A stretch of DNA of 64,000 nt from positions 868,001 through 932,000 of the forward strand of contig CM038998.1 of the NCBI GenBank assembly GCA_017499595.2, in the 5' to 3' direction. The notes under the pieces were generated by a model. The model did not search any database and was not told the origin of the DNA. It worked only from the letters and a program-made list of their open reading frames with translations. How positions within the stretch are numbered: the stretch's first letter is position 1; each line of letters starts with the position of its first letter. A program made the position numbers and the translations under genes. Positions 25,063 through 41,248 of the stretch are shown piece by piece. Source of the DNA: Psilocybe cubensis. Lineage: Eukaryota.

Positions 25063-28000
25063 CTAACAGCATTTCCACCAAGTCTTTTTACGCGTCCGAT
25101 CTTTGTCCTCTTCCTTGACATTGTTCTCTTTAATAACCTTCAAGAAGACACTTTCCAATGACGCCTTTTCCACGGTATATTCAGACGATCCATCATCGTG
25201 TGATGATAGAACCCCAAACAACTTCGCCAGCGAACACCCTCGACCGTCGTTGATAGAAATTATTGAACCGTCTTCGGATGTAGAATCGATAGAACTCATC
25301 GGAACCTCGAAGCGGGTGGCAACGTCGTCCGCCATCGTCGCCCCAGGGATTTGGGCCATGATAGACCGTGCTTTAACAACATCCTCCCGGGTGCGGCATG
25401 AGAAATGGACTTCGTACACGGGATACCGCTCAGAGAGAGATGCAGTCGTTCCTACCGCTAATGGACGGATTTGACGTTAGAATTTGTTAGCCATAGGTCT
25501 ATGGAAGCAATCTTACCGAGTATACGTTTTGCTAGTATACCGACGCAGTTGGCGAGAGCAGATGCCTCTTCCATCGAGTCTAACCATAAGCCTCAATGGT
25601 AAACAAACTATGGCCAAACGTCTGATGCGTAGCACTCACGAGTTGTGATGAGAATAGCCTTCCCAGATGACACCTTTCGCAAGGTTTCCCACATCTCTCG
25701 CTTCATCTTGGGATCAACACCAGAAGAGAACTCGTCGATTAAAACCACGGAAGGATTACCCAAAAGTGCAATGGCCAGCGACAGCTTCCTTTGGTTGCCT
25801 CCTGAGAGTTTGTTGGCCATCCTGTCCGCATACATATGCAATGAAGTGCCCTGCAGAATCATATTGACAGATTCGTCCAATTCGCGACCCCATTTTAACC
25901 CTTTCAGACGTCCGTATATGACCAAATGTTCTCTAACTGTAAGCTGAGAATCAATGGCCGTAAACTGGGGACAAACGCCCAAAGCTAATCGCGCCAAGCG
26001 TGGGTGGTGAAGGACAGAATGACCATCAATGAACACATCGCCAGCATCAGGCGAGATATCTCCACCTATTTTCAATACGTGTCAACCAGAGAGACTTTTG
26101 TAAAATAAACAAATAAACGCACGTATCATGTTAAATGTTGTCGTTTTGCCTGCACCATTGGGTCCAAGGAGGGCATAAATTGTATCCCTTTCGACGGAAA
26201 TATTGACGTCGTCTGTAACACTCTTGTGTTTGAATTTTTTGGAGACTCCAGACACTTCCAGAAGGCTTGTTGAAGATACAGAAGAGCCTTTTTCATCAGC
26301 ATCGATCTTCTTAGATGGAAGGCTGAGAATATGCGAAGCCTTTGATCTTGGTCGTGGTCTCTTCCTCAGAGACGCCAGAGATATTGACCCAGATCCTAAC
26401 CAAACTAAGATCGAAAATAGACCAATAGCGTAAAGTACCAAATATAGGATTGGGCCTCCCAGCTTGGTGAGAGATAGGAGATACCTTGTTCCAGCAAAAT
26501 TGGTTCCTCGACACCCCAGTGAGAACATGTTCACAGATACAAGGGCTGCACGAGTCTGCGGATTTTGTCAGGAAACATTTTGAAGGATTAAGAGGGACAC
26601 TGACAATGCTCGTAACGGGAGAAATGAAGGAAGTCGAGAAATGAACTATCGTCACCAAGCGGGAAGATTTCAGAATTGGAGCAAACGTGAAAATAGCCAT
26701 GTATGCCGTAAGATATAGCTGTAGATAATGAAACTGAGCATTTCATGGATGACCTTCAAAATTAAGTTGAGTCTTACGATGAATGTGACGAATTGGTATC
26801 CTGCAACCAAGGCAAATGCAGCCAATGGGGATGACACCAAGAACGAAAGACAGTACGCGAATAAATTAGCAGTTATACCGTAGAGAAAAAAGATGAGCCA
26901 CTGCGTAATTTGGTCAATGATCATAGATATTTCATTCACAGAGCTACTGGACTCACTAAATATCCAAGTCCACGGAACTGGTCAGAAACGAGAGCGAAAA
27001 CGATAACGATGATTGTTGAAAGGAGTGTAGAAATTATGGTGTCAAACATCAGGTGCCCCAGCCACAACCCGATGGGGTTGCACAGGCCATTCGAGAACTG
27101 CATCGCCTGAACGGAAGAGGCACGTTCCCTTGAGACATAGAGAGCCGAAAAGGCCGGATATACCGCCTTGATATGGATAAGCCAACCAGAAAACCATGTA
27201 AGAGCATCGCACATACCATGACGGCCCCAAAAAAGAAAATCCATTTTAAATAAAAAAGCGTAGCGGCAGTGAGCTTGTTGAACATGATATACTGGCCCTG
27301 TATGAGGCTTGGTAGTGAAGCTGCTCCACCAGTTGAATTAAGTGCATCGTTCAAGAGAATGTTACTTGCAAGATTGAGTGTTGTCAGAGCCTTGTATCCA
27401 GGTGCTGTGGCTTCCCATGCTACTGTTGATTCACCTGTAGTTTGGTTTATATATATACCACCTAAGGACATGTTACGGTCGTTCGTGTAGTCCTGAAAAC
27501 TCGCATAGTCCGGAAGATATGTAACTGACAAAACATCTGTGCTGCGCCCAAGCGTGGAAACGATGCCTGGTGGTGATGCGTACAATCCATCAGTAGCCGA
27601 CTTGTTGGCCATCGTCAAAAGTAGAGGAGAATTAGGAAGATACAGGGGAGTTGGTGGGACAATGTCGCCAAGGGGTGGAGTGCAAGATTGTTCTCGCCCG
27701 TTTATCATGAGAAGGGGTATACACGATCCGGCGACCGCAACGAGTACGGTGAGCAGAGGAGTTAGCCAACTTCGTTTCGCTATCAAGGTGCGTTTATGGA
27801 ATATGGTTATCGCCTGCCTAAAGGGAGACACTTGCCGCCCAGAGGGCAGATCCATGGTCAGGTCAGACACCTTTTCCACAGGTTCCGTAAGAGTGTCTGC
27901 GGTAGAACTATTAAGTGACAGTTTCCCGGAGACTTGATTTTCGTTCATCACATTTAGGAAGACATCCTCAATGGTCGTTCCCATAAGATCGTACGAAGAA

Positions 28001-30921
28001 ATTGTGCCAAGAGTTTTGGCGTTATCGAGAACGTCGAGGACGCGGGTGACAGTATTAGCATCCCTGGTTTTAAGATGATAGCAAACGAGTTGGGGTGAGA
28101 TCGTCGAAGAACATGCTTGTGGGACAATCTCCTGAATGGAATCTAGGATGCCATCCGTGACTTCCGAAGGATATTCGGCCTTGGAAATATCGATAGAGAC
28201 ATGAACAGAATATCCCTGGCCGAATTCTCTTTTCAGTGTAACAGGAGACCCGGAAGCTACGACCTTTCCGGGAGGGGCGAGAATGGCAATGTAATCAGCC
28301 AGTAAATCGGCTTCGTCAAGGAACTATGTAAGTGTTAGAATATTCATAACTTGGAACGTTTAGATAATTTGACTCACATGAGTAGTAAAGATAATTGCTC
28401 GATCTTCGCGGAATCGTAACATAGTTTTCCATATTGCCCGTCTACTAAGAGGATCAACCCCAGATGTACACTCGTCAACTAAAACGACTAAGAAATATGG
28501 GTAAGTTACGTGTTGTTCGTTGTTGGACAGCGACATTACGTACTTTTAGACCCGCCAAGGAGGCCAATGGCAAGTTGTAATTTACGCTTCTGGCCACCCG
28601 ATAAAGTCGCGGCATTGGCGTTGATTTTCGCTCCCAAGTCACAGTCCCGCAGCAATTGCTCTATATCCTCATCGTGCTCAGACGTCTCGGACCATTTGAC
28701 GGATTTCCAAACCCGCAGAGTTTGCAAGCACGTCAACTCAGGAAATAAAACATTCTTCTGTGGGACAATTCCCATTACACCTCTGGGAGGTCGATGATGG
28801 CCACCTTCAAAAAGAACACTGCCAGAAGAGATACTCGATAACCCAGCCACTACAGAAAGCGTGGTAGATTTCCCGGCGCTACGAAGGTCGCGAAGTACGA
28901 AGCCGCAGTAAGAACCTTGATGACTAAGTAAACGGACAAGAACCCCTACCCGTTTGAGCCCAGCATGACGTAGATCCCGGTCTTGGGCACATCCAGGCTA
29001 AGGTCCATAACCGCAGTCACCTCGTTCTTAGGTCCAAAAAATTTCCAAGCCTTGTAAACCTTGGAGAGGTTGCGAATCGAAAACGCGACGTTATCAGGAA
29101 CCTGTGGGGTGACCGTGGCAAGTTCAGTTTCTTGCTCCTTTAGGGTTCGTTTTCCCCAGAAGGCCCAGGGGAGTTTGACGTGTGATTGACGCCTTGAGGT
29201 TTGTTGGTGCACGTCATGCAAGCGCCTTTCCAATAAGACTGCGAGATAAGGCCACAAAAATATGTTAACCTACCAAAGCAACATTTATGAGTTGACCAAC
29301 GAAGAGTATTACACGAACCGACTCACGATTGCTGCGCATAGCATAGGAAGAACTATGATACCCCTATCCGGATCACCTTTCAACACGTCAACCGCAGTCT
29401 GATGGTTCTCATATCCACATATGGCCTTGAGAGCAAAGATGTAGAACGATGGTGGAAAAATTACGGCAAAAACAACCATAGGCGCCGTACGATTGATGTC
29501 TAACACCAGGCCCAAAAGCGCAAAGATAATTGCGAGGAAGGTGGATATGATGGCGGCCAGTTGAGGACTGGTGGAGAATGGGGCCGCAGTTATGAACGAC
29601 CAGCTAGCCAACACCAACCCCAGAAGTATGTGCAAAAAAATGATCAAAACGATACTCGTTTTGATAAATATCAAGAATTTCCATGTTATGGCAACCGCAG
29701 TCCATGCTGGAAGGTAGGTGAGGGATATGCTGATATGCCAGGATCTGAGGTTTTGACACCAATAAGTCAAACAAAAAAGAGTCGAGGAGGATAACGCTCA
29801 CAAAATCCTTGCGGAGTCCAAGAGGCCCATTGCCTTCATATGCGACGTAATCAGGAGCGCGCGCTCACTCGCCACAGAACCAGGGATTTGATAAGACACT
29901 CCCACAAAACAAAGGAAACTAAATTTAATCATTGAAGTGGCATACAGAGAACGAAGGTCAGCAATACTTACAACGCTAGAGCAATAATTTCCCGTATTCC
30001 TCGGATATAACCTGAAGGATGCGCAGCAATGAAAAAAATCGAATCGCAACGATAGTTTACGAGAACGTACTGAGACGATATCGGGTGCTCTGATCTTCGT
30101 TGGTGTAGTTAGAGTAAGGCCACTCCATCGGCGTCGCTTGACGAATGCCAGTCCGCAGCTCGATGATTGCCTGAACCTGATGTCAGGGCCAATGTCTGAC
30201 AGAAATTTCATTATATTACCTTGTCTAAGGCCCATTGTAGCGGGAGAATCCGCTTCTCAAAATCGCTGCCATGGTTTGTCAATTCGATATAGCTGAGCCC
30301 GGCGTCGGCAAATATTGTGTAGTTCACAATAGCCTGAAAAACAGCCGGAGCGCTCGCATCCAAAGCAAAACTGTCGGAAAATCCGACACCGGCGAAGCAT
30401 GACGACAAGCCGTTGAAATTCTGAGGGCAGGACTGTCGTATATCGTCCATGGTATCCAGTCGTCTGACCATTGAAAGCTGCTTTGGAGTGAAGTCGGCTG
30501 TTATTCGAGAAATGATATCGGTAGGTGATGGATTGGATGTCCCATTCGTCTCGTCCGCCCATAGAAATACACCTTGGTTTTCGTACTGACGTTGCAAGGG
30601 AAGAATCTCCGCTGGACCTTGGACTCCATACTGAAAAAATTAGGCCAGAGATGTCAATTCAAGCATGTAAAACGATGGAAACGAGACGCACATTGTTGAA
30701 TCTATGGAAAAATAGTTGAGCATAACCAAGAAATATGCCGTATCCAACAGGAAGTATCAAGCAACGAAGGAGAGTCGTCTAAGGGTTTGGAGAACGATTG
30801 AATCAGACAATTAAAATGTCTTAAATTACCAACAACTCACTATCCAGTGTCTCGATAGGACTATCCAATTTTTCCATATGAGTGCCCGAAGTTGAAGCCA
30901 AAGTAATCGAAGAAAAGCCAT
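25063..30921 (-). CDS. Full-size ABCA-subfamily ABC transporter, paralog 1
   Basis: ABCA-type N-terminus [19 protein letters not shown]; two NBDs ([57 protein letters not shown]); C-terminal SLESVFL motif. Confidence 0.93.
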
Positions 30922-32896
30922 GAGAGAGGGTTCTTGGTCCCCCAAATCAAGCGGTTTCCCAACGGTGATAATGAGGGTAGGGGGGTGTACGAGTCGCAGA
31001 AAACAATGTTTAAGAATTCTCCGCAGTTCATATATAACAAGACTCGATGTCACGATTTGGATTCGGCCTACGTCTTCGATCAGGGTGATTTCTTTCCTAG
31101 TTTGATTTGCAGTTAGATAACGACCCTCGCGAGAGTTTTGGAACGCCTTGTGGCGGAGGTTGTTAGCCGTTCCTTGCGCAGTCGCTGCAATATTTGCTTG
31201 TCCATTTGGGGCTCGATGACAATTGCAACACTCGTGTTTTTATTCTGATATTCTGCCGATGTAACCTGGTGAAAATGTCAGTCTCAGTTTGACGGTGGTG
31301 ACTGAACTTTGGTTTTCTTCAAAAATTCCAACCTTTTCCACCAGTATCGCTACATAAAGGGGATAAACCTTCGCGCTGAAGTCCGATGCGCTCTATGAGA
31401 GATACCTTGCCATAGAACACGGATGGGATATAACTGTCGTGTTCATCCTGTACCATCAGCAATCATTTCTCCTTGCCTAAACTTATTTTTTCATGTTTTT
31501 GAAGAACGGACATTATTGCGTTATTCTCCAATGTTATTATGGACAGCACCCTCAAGATCACTGAGTGTGCGTCTTCTGAAAATAAATTTAGCTAGATACG
31601 ATATGCGTATGGGTTGGACGGGAAGGGTGGTAATACGTGAATGATGTGCGCACATGATCGCAGAGACGCTGCGGCTGGTCCACTGGTAAGGGCATCATGA
31701 CGGTTCAAAGCAGGTTCAAGCAGGTTCCAATGAACTTTGGTCGCGCTTGGTATGTATGTAATGTGCTTGTTCTTGTTTGGTCTGTGAATTTTGGGTTTCT
31801 GCACTGCCACTCAAAGACGCCGATCCCCGATCCCGTCTCTTCTTTGAGCATCTTTGAGATGGATGGGCGTTTAGCATGGCCAAACGACCTGCACGAGAAC
31901 GCGTTGCACATTCACACGCACACTGGGGACATATAGTGCACTGGGCATTTCATGATAATTTGGTTGCCAGTCGCAGAATTACTGCGGTGGAGGAGGATGG
32001 AGGTTGTGCCGACAAGATTGTCAAAACCACTGATTGCCGGTGAAATCCGACAATTTGAGACCAAGAGACTGCCAAACAACGGGTCAATCCAACGAGACTC
32101 GATTACAGCAGCCAGCTCAAACCATTGATGATAACCCAATCTCAAGATCGCGTCAAAGGGTAGGATGACACAGATACAAAAGTTTCTCTGATTACACCGA
32201 CCAGTTCACTAACTATCCATTCGTCTAGAGTTGACTGAACCTGAAGTGCTACATCCGTTTATAGATAGGAGCGATTGAACTTCCTGAAGCTTCACATAAG
32301 ATTATTATCGTCAGCCTTTGGGACCTTCCACCATTAGCACAGTATCTCATCCACAACATATGCATAGACATATCCTGTTTGTCCCAGGCCTCCTGCTCAG
32401 TAAGCTTCAATAAGCGCCGAGTCCCTCCAGAGTTGGTATTTGAAAGCTCAATCCAAAAAACAACCTGTCCACGCAAGTCCGACATCGACTTCCTCTTCAC
32501 GCTTCACGACTGTGCTCAAACCGTACTTGTCAGTCAATTTCGGCCCGGGGACACATTTGTACCGAGTGATGACAGGAAGGGCATGTTCCCGATTATTCTG
32601 TGTAGTTTGCATCATGGAAGAGTCAAATGCACAGTATTATTGATAGCTTCGGGCAGTGTATAATGCTACTCAAGACGGAGGCAGAGAGGGACATAAATGT
32701 CATGACGGGTGTCGGAATCTGATGACGAGATTGTGCGATTCACGTGCACACGTGACCGCTCACCAATCAAGTCGGCCACCCGTAATCTGAGTCCAAAGAA
32801 TATAAAAACTGGAGATTTCCTCAGCATTTAAGTTCCTCACTCCCTCAACTCCGCTCACACAGTCACATATACCAACTCCCTTTATCCACACTCACA

Positions 32897-33407: not shown

Positions 33408-34031
33408 AGGGATTTTGCATCAACAACTGTAATTTTATGGATTCTATCAGTCTCTTATGGCGTAATTAAATGAATTTGAAGTAACTTCAAGCAAAAGTAG
33501 AGGCATTGCGTGATCACGAAGCCTGTCTCTATTAATATTAAGGCAGAGAGGAGGAGTTGACACGTTGAATTTTTCCGAACACACACAAAGCCATGTTACA
33601 ATGATAAAATGTCCAAATCGGCATAATCATATCCTCCGGATTCAACAAGAGATGAGTACGAGGTGGGATGTAATTAAGAATGTTAAGGTTGTGCAAATAA
33701 AGTGAATCATTACTCAACTGCAGAGTTACGAACACAGCTTGCCGAATGTACAGAGAGAATCAATAGTATCCCAATGGAAACTGTCCGATGAGAACATATA
33801 TGGTGTAGATATATGCGCTGGGCGCGTATGTCGGGAGACCCGGTTCTTAGAACATAAAGCCGAATGGTCTAAACCATAATTTCAATGTAGTTAAAAGAGG
33901 CACTGCCAAATACATATGGATAAGCGCCTGGCCAGATAAAATCCCGTTTGTTGAAAGAGGGAATGACTTAATGGCTAAAAACGCTAGTATGTGGCATGCG
34001 GAGTGGTTATTAAACAGTTGTGTGAGCTGAC

Positions 34032-35321
34032 CTAAATCTGCTCTAGGCCAGCCAAGTCTTCAAACCACGATACGACGGCTGCGACCTTGCGCACACAGGG
34101 CTCGCTGATCCCCAAACGTAGATCAGGCCGCATCCTCCCATCTTCGTGGGAATAAGGCATAGTGCGATAGCAAATGGTTAGGATCGATTTCAGGTAGGGC
34201 GACGCGGATAAGGTGATTGACGCTGCAGGATCACAGGAGGCCATAACATCTAATTGGAAACATAAAGGCTCAGCCTGAAAAAGAGCAGAAACAAAGGAAT
34301 AGGAGGAGATACATACTCTCTAGGTGCACGATATCCCCCCGTTTCGTTGCAACCGCTTTGCCCGCACCGCCCCAATCCTCAGCAATTTCTCTCCACGCAG
34401 TGAGTTTGCAGACTGTTCCCTCCTCGTCACCCAATACTATTTTGAGAATGGACACCTCCTTCCCGGCCTCAGCTCCGTTTTTGATACGAATTGTATCGGG
34501 ACCTTCGACCTCCAACACGGCGAGTAGACAACTGATTTTGACCGACCCTTTGAACTTTCTTTCAACGAGGGAGGAAAGAGACGTGAGAGTGTGTAGATTA
34601 AAATGAAAGGAAGGAAAACGGGCAATCGATGAGGCGTCAGAGTAGTTACCAAAAGATTGGGACTCTGGGTCTTGCGTCTCCAGAAACCGCGACTGAGATT
34701 CAGCCGAAGCTTGCGTTTCAGGAGGTGAAGTTTGAGGAGGTTCTGAGCCGCGGCGAAGGAGGGACGAGTTGGAGCCTAATGAGGATGATGTGTCTAATAG
34801 GAAAGAAGGGGCATTGAAGCTATCTTTCGATTCATCAAGCTCGTCATCTACGGGTCGACTCGGTGGCCACGAAATTAGGGTAGTCTGTTCTATTTCATGG
34901 TCTCATCATTTAGCATGGTAAAGCAGATCGACATCCAAGGCTCACCTTTGCCTCGAAAGACGGACACTTCAGCAGTATGTTCGGCAGGCACACCAGAATA
35001 TTCTCCCTGTGTCCCATCAATGTTGTCGGTCGCAAAGCTTTCCTCCACAGGATCCTCTGGACCCTCACTGAATACTAAATCTTTGTAAATTAACGATATC
35101 CGTCGACTTGCCTCTTCCAAGGTAGCAAGAGGAATAACAATAGAGGACTGGATCAAACGACTTTCAGACGTCCCTTGGGTAGGATATAAGAAAGATTTCG
35201 TAGATTTAGTGAGTTTCAATGCGATCCCTGAGCTGTTCGAAGAAACGGTTCGCCATGAGTAGGTGCTGGGGTCGTTATTGATCTCAGACAACGAAGGAGC
35301 TCCTAAAAAGACTCTATACAT
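34032..35321 (-). CDS. OB-fold protein resembling shieldin subunit 2 (SHLD2/FAM35A) N-terminus plus first OB fold
   Basis: MYRVFLGAP...YSWRTV N-terminus; Ser/Glu-rich linker with ETQ/ESQ repeats; OB-like KISCLLAVLEVEGPDTIRIKNGAEAGKEVSILKIVLGDEEGTVCKLTAWREIAEDW...KRGDIVHLE; 3 exons. Confidence 0.75.
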
Positions 35322-35701
35322 CTCAGGCAGAGCGTATGTATGGAGGAGGGACAAATGACAAGGGAAGAATGTGCTTTCATTGTGACTGGGTGAAATGTAG
35401 CTGCACAGACGCGGCACTTTATTGGCAAACAGCAGATCGTGGGTAAAAAATTAAGAGTCCGATCGTGCAGCGCACCTTGCCGTCTAGAACTTGAGTCAAG
35501 GGGTAAGAAAACTAAATCACTACTCGGCGAAGCTCTGAGAAACCCTCCGTACGCGTCAGTACTTTAACATTCGTAATAAAGGCAGACCGTCTGTGTTAAA
35601 GTGTCGATGTACAAGGTATTATTCGATTTTCAATGCTTATAGTTTGTCGGCGACCTATAAGAGTCAAATCAGTTGGTAGAAACCCCGAAAGATTACTTGA
35701 T

Positions 35702-37377: not shown

Positions 37378-39283
37378 CTAGAAAACAGTGCCTTTGACCT
37401 GCTTGAACTTTTTGACGTTGATATCCTTCCACAGGAGGACGCTTGCCCACGAAATTGCCAAAATGCACACAGACGCGATGCACATGTACCTCTGTGCGTG
37501 GCCGTACGCAGCGTTGATCGCATCTCTCTCAGGAGTTCCCATAGGGAAGCTGAGCTGAGCACCCAGGCTTCCGTAGATGACCGGCCAGTATTGCTTGCTT
37601 TCTTCGGGCAAAAGCTCCAACAACTTCTGGGGGAAGACTCCAGTCCAGATTGCACCTGCTACGGCCTGACCAACGGCGCCTCCAACGGAAGCAAACATCC
37701 CCTCCATTGCAAGGACGACGGCGACGAACTGATGGGAGGTGGCGGCCATCGCAGCGGTCTGCTCACATATTACGCAAGTTCCCCCTGCAAAGGCGATGAA
37801 GATTTGGCACATAACTACGTAACCGACATTGACGCCTGGTTGACGGAAGTGGATCATAAGGCCTACGCCGAGCATTGTGACGGGAACACCGAACCATAAA
37901 GTAAGGCCCTTGAATTTCCCGGTATAACGGATAATGACCCCGATGAACAGTGCAAAGAAGCACGACCCCATGGTGTACGTGTTGCCGACATACGAAGCTT
38001 CGGTGATGCTAAGTCCGTTCACAACCATAAGGAAGGAGAAGAAATATGTCGCCCAAAGGTAGTACGACACAAAAAGAGTTCCTGAAAGGATGCAGGCACC
38101 CAAAACAGTGCGGTCGAGGAGGAGGGAGTAAGGAATATAGGTGACGCGGGCGTAATACCGTTCCCAAAAGACGAAGGCGATGCAGAGCAATCCACCTATG
38201 ATGAGCATAGAGATGATCATGGGTGAGCGCCAGGTATTCTCCTGATAGGAATAGAGAGAGAACGGGAGCAAGAAGAGGGCGAGGCCGGAAATGATGAGGA
38301 AAAGGCCAACGACATCAAATTCGACGGCATAGTGTTTGAAGGATTCACTGAGTGTGCGGCCCGAAGGTGTTCTAGTGATAAGACCCATTTTCTCAGCTTT
38401 ACTGTAATTCAGATAGAAAACGAAGAAGAGGGGGAGCGTGATAGCAGGAGTGATGATGGCGAATGAACCAAAACCCCATCGAAAACCTGGGCCTTCCAGG
38501 AAAGCGTCTGCGAGGGGACCACCGATCCAGGTTGTAGCAAGATACGGTGAAGTTGCAAAAGCGAACATGAAGGACCTGTTGCGGAGCGTAGATGTATCGG
38601 CAATAAAGATACCAAGAGTATACGTCAAACCGTTATATCTAACGAATATTAGGTTCGAGAGGAAGTGACGATATACAAAATACACATACCCGACCCAGTA
38701 GAACACCTGAGCAGCCGCGTACGTCTCGACGTTGTTGCAACCAGCCATCATAACGAGACCAACAGTCAAAAGAACTATCATCATTAAATATCCTTGAGGA
38801 CGGCCCCAGATGTCGAGGACTTTGGCGAGTGGAAGTTTGACGAGACCTCCAACAATTCCAGAGACAATTCCCGTGGCGGAGATGGTAGAATGCTTTCCAA
38901 AGCTAGAGGTAACATATGGTGTGAGGGTAGTAGTCGTACTTTGTTGCATGGAGTCGACGAAATAGATGATCCAGATCCTGAATGCGGCGTCAGCAGTTTG
39001 ATCAATGGCAGGAGAGAAAAAGGAAAAGCTCTGACATGGTGTACGCCAAATACAGGGCGCCTTTGGTCCATACCGTCGTCACCGCCTCTATTTTTTTGAC
39101 ACCAGCCTGTGCATCTGGTGTAAACTGCTCGCTGTCGATAATTTGTGCATCCTGCTCGTCAACTACACCGATTGGTCGTGCTGGAGTGCGACTTTCAACG
39201 TCCGATTGCTTCTCCGCTTCGGAGTCGACGATCGGTTGATCAGCTTGAGGTCGGATCCTACTGAACAAAATGTTGGAGGCCAT
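37378..39283 (-). CDS. Siderophore-iron transporter (SIT/ARN/MirB-type 14-TM MFS)
   Basis: AQAGVKKIEAVTTVWTKGALYLAY; PYVTSSFGKHS...KLPLAKVLDIWGRPQG; ADTSTLRNRSFMFAF; SFPMGTPERDAINAAYGHAQR, all SIT-family motifs. Confidence 0.92.
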
Positions 39284-39693: not shown

Positions 39694-41092
39694 TTAACCA
39701 TACCACTCGTCGCCTAGCTTTGCTTCTACCGGAGGTCTTTCAGGAATAAAAGGCCGATCGATGTTAAACACCTGAATGGCACGCTGGAAGCCATAACAGT
39801 CAAATTAGCAAACCAAGATATTGGTAAGGGGAAAATGTTTAAACCCGACGTACCTTCCATGTTTCGTTATCAAGCTCCAAAACCATTTGCTTTCTCTTGG
39901 TACTCTCCGTATTTTGAGTGGATCCCGGATCCTGCAAAACTTTGGCGTCTATGAGTCATTACTCCTACAAAGAAAAGCTGTGGAAAACTTACAAACAACA
40001 GGCTCTCCATCACGAGATTCAAGGTGCACTTTGCCATCTCGCACAAGAAATGACAAGTAAAATAGGTTCTCAACCGAGTGAGCGAAGTTTGTAGGATTAA
40101 TTACGAGTTCAAACAGGTTTTTGGGATTGTTGGCGTAAACGTTGAAGAATTTGAGAACGCCTTCCATCTATGAAGTGCTGGTCAGTTACCAAAAATGCTC
40201 GCGAAGAAAAGGGACCTACGATTGCCATATTGTTCGTTGTTTCATTTTCCGATCTCAAAATGTTTTCTTCTCCAAGTTCCTGAGGTTTCCGCCTATCCGC
40301 TTGATTCTTCTCAAGCTTTGACCGACTTTTCCGAGCTCTTTTTCTATGTACGACAGACAAGGGACCCAGCCTGTCATAGAGATATGAATGTAACACCCAA
40401 CATACGAAATCCAAGTTTAGGAGCACATACATAAATCCTGTAGCAGGAACTCGCCGACTTTTAGCCATGCATTTACGGCCTATTCCATCCCAATCAAGAG
40501 CCGGTCCGAAATGGCCATCATCGTCTGAATCAGAGTCGTCTAATTGTAAATTTTCAGAGTCGGACCGGCCCATATATCGCACCAGACTTGTTATAAAGTT
40601 ATCCACATTAAATGTACCTGTCCCTGACTTCATTGCTCTAGCTTTCTGGGCACCTATACTGGTGGCCATCACGAAGAATCGGGAATCAAGAATCGCTTCC
40701 TGAGGTTCTTTAACTAGCGAGAATTAAGCTATCTGAACGCTACAGATGCTTTTGTCAAGAAACTCACCAAAGTCAAATAGACTATTCGCCGTCCGTACTC
40801 CGTCCATTATTTCGAGTGGTGATAGTTCTTCAAGGTTCCTTTGATGTTCTAGGCGGCAAAGCATTAGGAAGAGTGCATATCCCTCGTCCGAAAGATTGTA
40901 CCTATGATCCTTTTGTGCAGAGATCGATAATCCCTGCGTAAGACTCGCTTTTCCTCAGAGTCCTGATTTGGATCGAAGATGATTTCTAACGTTGTAACGT
41001 TGCCGTTTAGTGGACGTTACCAGTAGTTCCTACGAATACGGTATGTGGTCACCTTCAGAGTCCTTCCCGGAATCTGTGTCATAATCAGACAT
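39694..41092 (-). CDS. NSE4: Smc5/6 kleisin subunit Nse4
   Basis: FDPNQDSEEKRVLRRDYRSL N-terminus; NLFELVINPTNFAHSVENLFYLSFLVRDG (Nse4_C); RKQMVLELDNETWK|RAIQVFNIDRPFIP. Confidence 0.9.
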
Positions 41093-41219: not shown

Positions 41220-41248
41220 ACGCGTTGATGTTTATTTGTTCAACGCGT
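41220..41248. promoter_or_regulatory. Two MCB-like ACGCGT boxes in the NSE4/PGA1-like divergent promoter
   Basis: ACGCGT at 41220-41225 and 41243-41248, both in a CAACGCGTT context. Confidence 0.55.

Follow-up and report, generated by a model that had tools for sequence, protein, structure and literature searches.

We analysed a window of 64,000 nucleotides of Psilocybe cubensis DNA (assembly GCA_017499595.2, contig CM038998.1, positions 868,001 to 932,000 of the forward strand; all positions below are those of the window). In this window, an initial annotation made from the letters alone had described a minus-strand gene as a compact counterpart of the vertebrate shieldin subunit SHLD2 (FAM35A). 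Our analysis indicates that the gene probably encodes a SHLD2-homologous subunit, predicted to bind single-stranded DNA (ssDNA), of a fungal Njf1-Rev7 shieldin-like end-joining complex. Its product is most likely a shieldin-2-like protein from outside animals, with a single oligonucleotide/oligosaccharide-binding (OB) fold. The layout of the protein is compact: (i) an N-terminal module (YRVFLGAP, Trp, RISLIY), (ii) an acidic linker with a cluster of Ser/Thr-Gln (S/T-Q) motifs, (iii) one RPA70-like OB fold and (iv) a C-terminal helix that caps it.

The shieldin subunits besides REV7 have been reported as absent from yeast, fly, worm, zebrafish and frog (PMC11616998), and are treated as undetectable outside vertebrates in a 2024 preprint on Cryptococcus (PMC11526942; statements on this source refer to the portions of its text and supplementary files used here). 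In our full-text literature searches we found no paper in which a fungal homologue of SHLD2 is recognised or the Cryptococcus protein CNAG_03411, considered below, is discussed; automated domain names alone exist. Such automated names, whose existence the initial annotation had anticipated, are indeed carried by many relatives in UniRef and derive from the SHLD2 OB domain.

The OB fold

The Pfam family SHLD2_OB1 (PF21669; curated gathering cut-off 26 bits) matched exon 2 of the window gene alone with 28.1 bits (E = 1.9e-6), though the OB fold is split by intron 2. P0004, a protein of Psilocybe cyanescens that was the best database match of exon 2 and is 70.7% identical to the full spliced window protein, scored 31.3 bits. 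Among 13 diverse members of the family, 8 reached the cut-off and 12 matched at E ≤ 1, and 48 of the 50 relatives in the alignment from which the family profile was built (A1) matched at E ≤ 0.01, the best at 1.5e-8, with no rival OB family. The other OB families found in the 13 members (REPA_OB_2 and tRNA_anti-codon) gave E-values of 0.03-0.13 at best. REPA_OB_2 (PF16900; cut-off 27 bits) missed its cut-off, with 12.7-13.7 bits (E 0.063-0.13) in 3 of the 13 members and no match in the window exons. The proposal of a SHLD2-like OB fold was thus borne out by the profiles, among which SHLD2_OB1 ranked first.

The AlphaFold2 model of P0004, computed with alignment A1, is confident for residues ~199-363 (predicted local distance difference test score ~90), and the linker is disordered. 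The modelled fold is that of ssDNA-binding OB proteins such as RPA70 DBD-B and Sulfolobus SSB, and the window protein would therefore be expected to bind ssDNA. In the VIA comparison the best solved structure was RPA70 DBD-B (1jmc_A, residues 297-420; Z 13.2, root-mean-square deviation 2.6 Å, 124 residues), archaeal RPA gave Z ~12 and the first OB fold of human POT1 Z 11.7-11.8, while Foldseek found a Sulfolobus SSB (E ~5e-6). No chain described as SHLD2 was among the solved-structure matches listed by Foldseek or VIA, so this comparison cannot tell SHLD2 from RPA. A sequence search of the PDB with exon 2 alone gave one unrelated match (E = 1.3).

Predicted structures were compared in the ESM Atlas. 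With the OB domain alone as the query, a chordate FAM35A/SHLD2 cluster was the next row after the protein's own cluster (TM-score 0.69 by query). This match has 147 aligned residues within SHLD2_OB1 and "meets the bar for a name"; MEIOB (0.65) and archaeal RPA (0.62) were listed below it. Among the non-fungal predicted structures of the Atlas, that of chordate SHLD2 is the nearest, and by both profile and predicted structure the OB fold is closest to the first OB fold of SHLD2. A homodimer prediction for the OB fold with its C-terminal helix scored 0.01 against a mark of 0.32, which is evidence in neither direction.

The main rival to a SHLD2 homologue is an RPA-like ssDNA-binding OB protein outside the SHLD2 lineage, whose N-terminal motif would have arisen by convergence or have no relation to that of SHLD2, and which would act in Rev7/Pol zeta translesion synthesis or in some other process on ssDNA instead of in end protection. 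RPA70 DBD-B, archaeal RPA and Sulfolobus SSB are indeed the best solved-structure matches, and a SHLD2_OB1 hit near the cut-off could reflect general RPA70-like features. The fold of the window protein also agrees with that of RPA70 DBD-B and archaeal RPA/SSB in having a helix that connects strands 3 and 4 and another at the C-terminus. However, identity to RPA70 DBD-B is 18%, REPA_OB_2 is matched only at E 0.06-0.13, and tandem OB folds are lacking. No RPA family fell below E 0.03, whereas SHLD2_OB1 went down to 1.5e-8; chordate SHLD2 stands above RPA and MEIOB among the Atlas predicted structures; and the domain order and N-terminal residues agree with SHLD2. The leading position of RPA among the solved structures does not by itself speak against SHLD2, since no SHLD2 OB chain was among those listed. 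We therefore regard this alternative as unlikely.

A single OB fold is also found in human SSB1/SOSS-B1, where it serves double-strand-break repair within the SOSS complex (Foldseek E 1.4e-4 to 5d8f_B; VIA Z 10.8 to 5d8f_A). The OB fold of SSB1/SOSS-B1 is N-terminal, whereas that of the window protein is C-terminal, and the latter has no match to Pfam OB_Ssb-like.

The N-terminal module

The N-terminal segment of SHLD2, which binds open REV7 and SHLD3 in a beta-sheet sandwich, has been described by Liang et al. 2020 (PMC7181697; text portions used here). Open REV7 contributes its strand 5, and SHLD3 its strand 1, to a pairing with strand 1 of SHLD2, the type of pairing seen in PDB 6KTO; Phe10, Ala13, Pro14 and Trp36 surround Tyr63 of REV7; and Val7, Ile9, Trp11, Lys37, Ile39, Leu41, Tyr43, Leu48 and Leu50 make up the hydrophobic side. 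Compared with these residues, as named and numbered in that text, the fungal N-terminus (P0004 numbering) contains (i) V4-F5-L6-x-A8-P9, i.e. Phe with Ala at +3 and Pro at +4, as in SHLD2, and (ii) W23-R24, then I60-x-L62-x-Y64 and F69, i.e. Ile with Leu at +2, Tyr at +4 and a hydrophobic residue at +9, which is the spacing of Ile39/Leu41/Tyr43/Leu48. No other N-terminal positions of the fungal family are as strongly conserved as these SHLD2-like ones. The distance from F-x-G-A-P to Trp is shorter in the fungal protein than in SHLD2. In addition, Trp and I-x-L-x-Y are adjacent in human numbering but ~35 residues apart in the fungal family, and one of the two correspondences therefore requires an insertion.

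The initial annotation had claimed that the gene keeps the partner-binding N-terminal strand of SHLD2. Residue types and spacings agree with this claim (Liang et al. 2020); the resemblance holds at the level of the motif and is not detectable statistically by a profile search of the PDB or by phmmer. We infer from the motif that the fungal N-terminus corresponds to the REV7/SHLD3-binding segment of SHLD2, in which case it would bind Rev7 directly.

Conservation of the family

Using exon 2 alone, we identified 57 longer proteins with E ≤ 0.001 among 1581 candidates, and the named ones all come from Agaricomycetes. The A1 profile recovered 395 proteins with E ≤ 0.01 from a word-indexed database. 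In an exhaustive library, the family profile matched 549 representative clusters with E ≤ 0.001 (409 with E ≤ 1e-10), the best 150 of which are close relatives throughout (E ≤ 4e-36).

In the 50 aligned sequences, the following blocks are conserved: (i) N-terminal Y-R-V-F-L-G-A-P, then Trp, with P9 invariant and F5, G7, A8 and W23 kept in at least 90%; (ii) P-A-T-L-E-A-A-S-R-R-I-S-L-I-Y-x-N-I-I-F (P0004 numbering), with S61, Y64 and F69 invariant and I60 kept in at least 90%; (iii) S-D-A-S-S-I-A-R-F-P-x-F-H-F at the entry of the OB fold; and (iv) the OB fold, with the motifs K-L-T-A-W-R-E, K-R-G-D-I-V, C-Y-R-T and R-P-D-L-R-L-G, together with the C-terminal helix V-R-K-V-A-A-V-V-x-W-F. The GAP motif, with its invariant P9, is kept among the fungal relatives: F[LMTVS]GAP occurs in 148 of the 179 members whose match reaches the N-terminus, and the rest mostly carry close variants (FIGAP, FYGAP, FLPPP). 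The initial annotation had named a better match to a different OB family and an unconserved GAP motif as outcomes that would speak against it, and on each part the result went the other way.

Conservation of the family extends from Agaricomycetes to Cryptococcus. A wider range is suggested by ESM Atlas clusters of OB proteins of 377-392 amino acids (aa), whose members are recorded mostly as Ascomycota (feature scores 0.96-0.97, TM-scores 0.71-0.75) and one of which carries SHLD2_OB1 on 19% of its members; these clusters may serve as a lead for a range beyond Basidiomycota.

Database models in which a family member is fused to Sir2, annexin, P450, F-box or RRM sequences (P0291, P0302, P0137, P0281, P0285, P0298, P0057, P0297) were rejected. 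The partners vary by species and are so diverse that these models look like merged neighbouring genes.

The apparent Cryptococcus counterpart and the Njf1 complex

A word-indexed search with a domain-only alignment (A2), run in a longer length band that leaves out many relatives of 300-360 aa, identified 52 proteins with E ≤ 1 among 8000 candidates. These come from Agaricomycetes, including Tulasnella and Serendipita, and from Cryptococcus neoformans. The C. neoformans protein P0303 (420 aa; computed mass 46,306 Da) matched the domain profile with E = 2.1e-19 and aligned with the family over 174 columns, comprising the OB fold and the C-terminal helix (hhalign probability 99.4%, E = 4e-21). 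Its identity to the window protein is 28% (BLASTP E = 9.5e-17 in a local database of seven sequences). Its OB fold contains insertions relative to the window protein, its N-terminus (MTHFQVFLPP) shows FLPP where the window protein shows FLGAP, and one S/T-Q motif instead of four precedes the OB fold. A further protein, P0304 (439 aa), is a variant of P0303 with a 19-residue insertion in the OB fold directly after VVLLE. Since this insertion lies at the place of intron 2 of the window gene, it has the appearance of an unspliced intron whose position is conserved.

The C. neoformans gene CNAG_00817 (Njf1) is described in the preprint cited above (PMC11526942). Its deletion clusters with deletions of Ku and Rad9, causes Zeocin sensitivity and eliminates end joining in an assay. 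Rev7, Rif1 and Rev3 were recovered together with Njf1, and in a multimer model one Njf1 peptide lies under the Rev7 seatbelt, like SHLD3. The preprint reports Njf1 from basidiomycetes only, and the portions used here report no sequence similarity to SHLD3.

The pull-down data of that preprint (PMC11526942, file 5, sheets H and I) contain a further protein. In the untreated Njf1-FLAG pull-down, Njf1 ranks first (NormArea 0.94), Rev7 (CNAG_06373) second (0.51) and CNAG_03411 third (0.32), and the next protein, at rank 4, has a value of 0.0037. In the Zeocin pull-down, CNAG_03411 is again the third most abundant (0.88, with Njf1 at 1.68 and Rev7 at 1.06). The supplement lists CNAG_03411 as a hypothetical protein of 420 aa and 46,284.5 Da, restricted to Tremellomycetes and with no domain, and in the portions of the main text used here it goes unmentioned. 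P0303 and CNAG_03411 come from the same species, have the same length of 420 aa and differ in mass by no more than 21 Da, and are therefore very likely the same protein, strain variants apart.

The Cryptococcus Njf1-Rev7 shieldin-like complex would thus contain a member of the window protein's family, as P0303 fits CNAG_03411 in length and mass. The Rev7 link suggested by the initial annotation gains indirect backing from the co-purification of this apparent orthologue with Njf1 and Rev7. Like vertebrate SHLD2, the window protein has an N-terminal module (here putatively partner-binding), a long disordered linker, then a SHLD2_OB1 fold, and, through the apparent orthologue, a putative association with Rev7; its fungal partner would be Njf1 in the place of SHLD3. 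The preprint also provides beta scores (file 7), which we set aside because they come from an unrelated suppressor screen.

Evidence against the assignment

Several observations weigh against a SHLD2 homologue that acts in this complex. The families of the second OB fold (PF22779) and of SHLD2_C (PF15793) were matched neither in the window exons (E ≤ 10) nor in the 13 members (E ≤ 1). The window protein, of 388 aa, terminates ~25 residues past its one OB fold, whereas the chordate SHLD2 clusters add PF22779 and PF15793, vertebrate SHLD2 having three OB folds. SHLD2 binds SHLD1 through its C-terminal part. With the two families unmatched, the window protein lacks the SHLD1-binding part; it is not a canonical SHLD2 and does not imply a partner of the SHLD1 type. 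The SHLD2_OB1 scores lie near the threshold (13.7-35.6 bits), which suggests that the Pfam model covers the fungal proteins at its margin and was built without them in its seed. At the N-terminus, the comparison with SHLD2 was made by way of the residues and positions that Liang et al. 2020 name; a PDB search with the fungal profile found 0 matches at E ≤ 10, and a phmmer search with residues 1-75 a single, unrelated PDB match (E = 3.5).

Further points concern the Cryptococcus data (PMC11526942). The equation of P0303 with CNAG_03411 is made from species, length and mass, and the masses are 21 Da apart. The affinity purification-mass spectrometry was carried out with one replicate per condition. 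CNAG_03411 is also present in the Zeocin control (0.021), which yields a ratio of 42 and a ratio rank of 208; this carry-over, by lowering the rank, may explain why the protein was overlooked. A CNAG_03411 knockout exists and passed quality control, but it lies outside the preprint's non-homologous end joining cluster of five genes (CNAG_01352, CNAG_00568, CNAG_00817, YKU80 and CNAG_04220). The position of this knockout, like the presence of Rev3 in the Njf1 pull-down, would suit an RPA-like protein that serves translesion synthesis.

The language-model feature scores of the Atlas also do not favour SHLD2: POT1-type clusters scored 0.80-0.84 and chordate SHLD2/FAM35A 0.79, all of them below 0.9 and hence under the "lead only" line. 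The former scores, obtained for POT1 and POT1PC clusters, together with the VIA match to the first OB fold of human POT1, would fit a telomere end-binding factor of the POT1/TPP1/CST kind, a role that the initial annotation had also suggested, beside a meiotic one that gained no support. We consider a telomere factor very improbable. No Pfam match to POT1, POT1PC (PF02765, PF16686), Stn1 or Ten1 was found at E ≤ 1 in the 13 members, the POT1-type scores themselves stay under the "lead only" line, and the partners recovered with the apparent orthologue of Cryptococcus are Rev7 and Njf1, with no telomere proteins in the top ranks of the data used here (PMC11526942).

Gene structure and transcript support

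According to the reading frames and splice signals, the SHLD2-like gene (minus strand, 34032-35321; ATG at 35321-35319, stop codon at 34034-34032) consists of three exons, with a coding sequence of 1167 nucleotides (nt) that specifies 388 aa (Table 1). The sequence strings quoted in the initial annotation (MYRVFLGAP...YSWRTV, ETQ/ESQ/ETQ/ESQ and SCLLAVLEV...GDIVHL) are all present on the minus strand at their reported places.

One contig of ~1282 nt, found in run X1 and in run X2 of one study, comprises 33977-34249, 34317-34889 and 34946-35381, and thus omits precisely the predicted introns of 67 nt and 56 nt. The RNA label of X1 and X2 is a guess, none of the listed runs being recorded as RNA; a spliced mRNA is the simplest reading of these intron-less contigs. 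The contigs from two runs of a second study retain both introns (read-through). X1 and X2 are identical to the window, whereas X3 and X4, of the second study, differ from it at ~20 single positions (34209-35294), which points to another haplotype or strain within the species. That the gene is not real or is mis-modelled can be regarded as refuted: nothing was found in favour of this view, the spliced contigs agree with the model base for base, and the protein has its full-length P. cyanescens counterpart and hundreds of relatives.

In each of the four runs, a contig diverges from the window at 33977, just past the 3′ end of the transcript, with an identical 30-letter consensus on the loose end. 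Alleles or strains may differ here, downstream of the SHLD2-like gene.

Table 1. Features of the SHLD2-like gene of P. cubensis and its surroundings (window positions; UTR, untranslated region)
Feature	Position	Strand	Basis
Coding region, start to stop codon	34032..35321	-	Open reading frames, splice model, spliced contigs
Extent of spliced transcript-like contig; 5′ UTR ~60 nt, 3′ UTR ~55 nt	33977..35381	-	Runs X1 and X2, one study
Exon 1; residues 1-125 and first base of codon 126	34946..35321	-	Splice model, contigs
Intron 1; 56 nt, GT..AG	34890..34945	-	Splice model; contig joint skips 56 nt
Exon 2; residues 126-317 in part; linker and most of OB fold	34317..34889	-	Splice model, Pfam, contigs
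Intron 2; 67 nt, GT..AG; within OB fold	34250..34316	-	Splice model; contig joint skips 67 nt
Exon 3; residues 317-388 and stop; end of OB fold and C-terminal helix	34032..34249	-	Splice model, contigs
YRVFLGAP, residues 2-9; putative Rev7/Njf1-binding strand	35295..35318	-	Conservation; putative counterpart of SHLD2 Val7, Ile9, Phe10, Trp11, Ala13, Pro14
YSWRTV, residues 21-26; near-invariant Trp, then Arg/Lys	35244..35261	-	W23 in at least 90%; putative counterpart of SHLD2 Trp36, Lys37
Conserved segment ATLEEASRRISLIYKDLVF, residues 66-84	35070..35126	-	Conservation; putative match to spacing of SHLD2 Ile39, Leu41, Tyr43, Leu48
Acidic S/T-Q cluster ETQ, ESQ, ETQ, ESQ; residues 183-203, disordered linker	34657..34719	-	Sequence
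OB fold and C-terminal helix; residues ~221-385; intron 2 inside	34044..34605	-	Pfam PF21669, AlphaFold2 model of P0004, fold matches
Amphipathic C-terminal helix after RPDLRLG (VRKVAAVVSWFEDLAGL region)	34050..34100	-	Alignment; AlphaFold2 helix 345-361 in P0004; conserved in Cryptococcus protein
ACGCGT (MluI-box-like), ~170 nt upstream of 5′ end of transcript contig	35551..35556	.	Sequence; weak

The linker, the ACGCGT box and neighbouring genes

In 42 of 55 members, the 70-residue stretch ahead of the OB fold contains at least three S/T-Q motifs; the median is 3, compared with 1.5 in composition-preserving shuffles. The window protein has 4 in this region and the Cryptococcus protein 1.

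The ACGCGT box at 35551, which had been thought to fit cell-cycle or DNA-repair regulation, is present, but this meaning of a single box gained no support: the 64-kb window contains 17 copies (8.8 expected; 0 of 100 shuffles reach 17), which makes the box at 35551 weak evidence. The density of ~1 per 3.8 kb means that ~10% of 400-bp promoters hold a copy. As ACGCGT is about twice as frequent as in shuffles, MluI-type boxes may be functional in this fungus. Two copies 23 nt apart (41220 and 41243; 41220-41248) are located just past the likely 5′ end of a Nse4/EID3 gene.

This gene, represented by an exon for the Nse3-binding domain of Nse4/EID3, the Smc5/6 kleisin (40109-40723, minus strand; E = 1.2e-16), lies 5 kb from the SHLD2-like gene. 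The latter is flanked by an open reading frame for a major facilitator superfamily (MFS) transporter (37378-39078, minus strand; E = 1.3e-12) and by an exon for an ATP-binding cassette (ABC) transporter (~27049-31239, minus strand; E = 5.8e-14). No functional clustering of the ABC transporter, MFS transporter and Nse4 neighbours with the SHLD2-like gene was apparent, and the two transporters are not functionally connected with DNA repair.

Proposed role and significance

In the proposed mechanism, the N-terminal strand would pair with Rev7 and with Rev7-binding Njf1, in the manner in which the SHLD2 N-terminus pairs with open REV7 and SHLD3, while the OB fold would bind the single-stranded overhang at a broken DNA end. 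The complex would then limit resection or promote fill-in, and thereby favour non-homologous end joining. The S/T-Q cluster of the linker may be a target of Tel1/Mec1.

On this basis we tentatively put forward, as a possibility that falls somewhat short of an even chance, that shieldin is not a vertebrate invention, that it has been kept across Agaricomycotina and, to judge from the Atlas clusters of ~380-aa OB proteins, Ascomycota, and that the three-OB SHLD2 of vertebrates arose from a single-OB protein by domain duplication. If this is true, the Cryptococcus shieldin-like pathway would be homologous to shieldin and not merely analogous; the sole functional study of the fungal pathway relies on analogy in the portions used here (PMC11526942). 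The 53BP1-RIF1-shieldin axis would then predate the split between fungi and animals, and tractable organisms (Cryptococcus, Coprinopsis, Schizophyllum) would become available for the study of DNA-end protection by a minimal shieldin. Deletion of Ku reportedly raises homologous gene targeting in Cryptococcus, in a study cited by the Njf1 preprint; if the protein described here promotes end joining, its deletion may raise homologous gene targeting in mushrooms.

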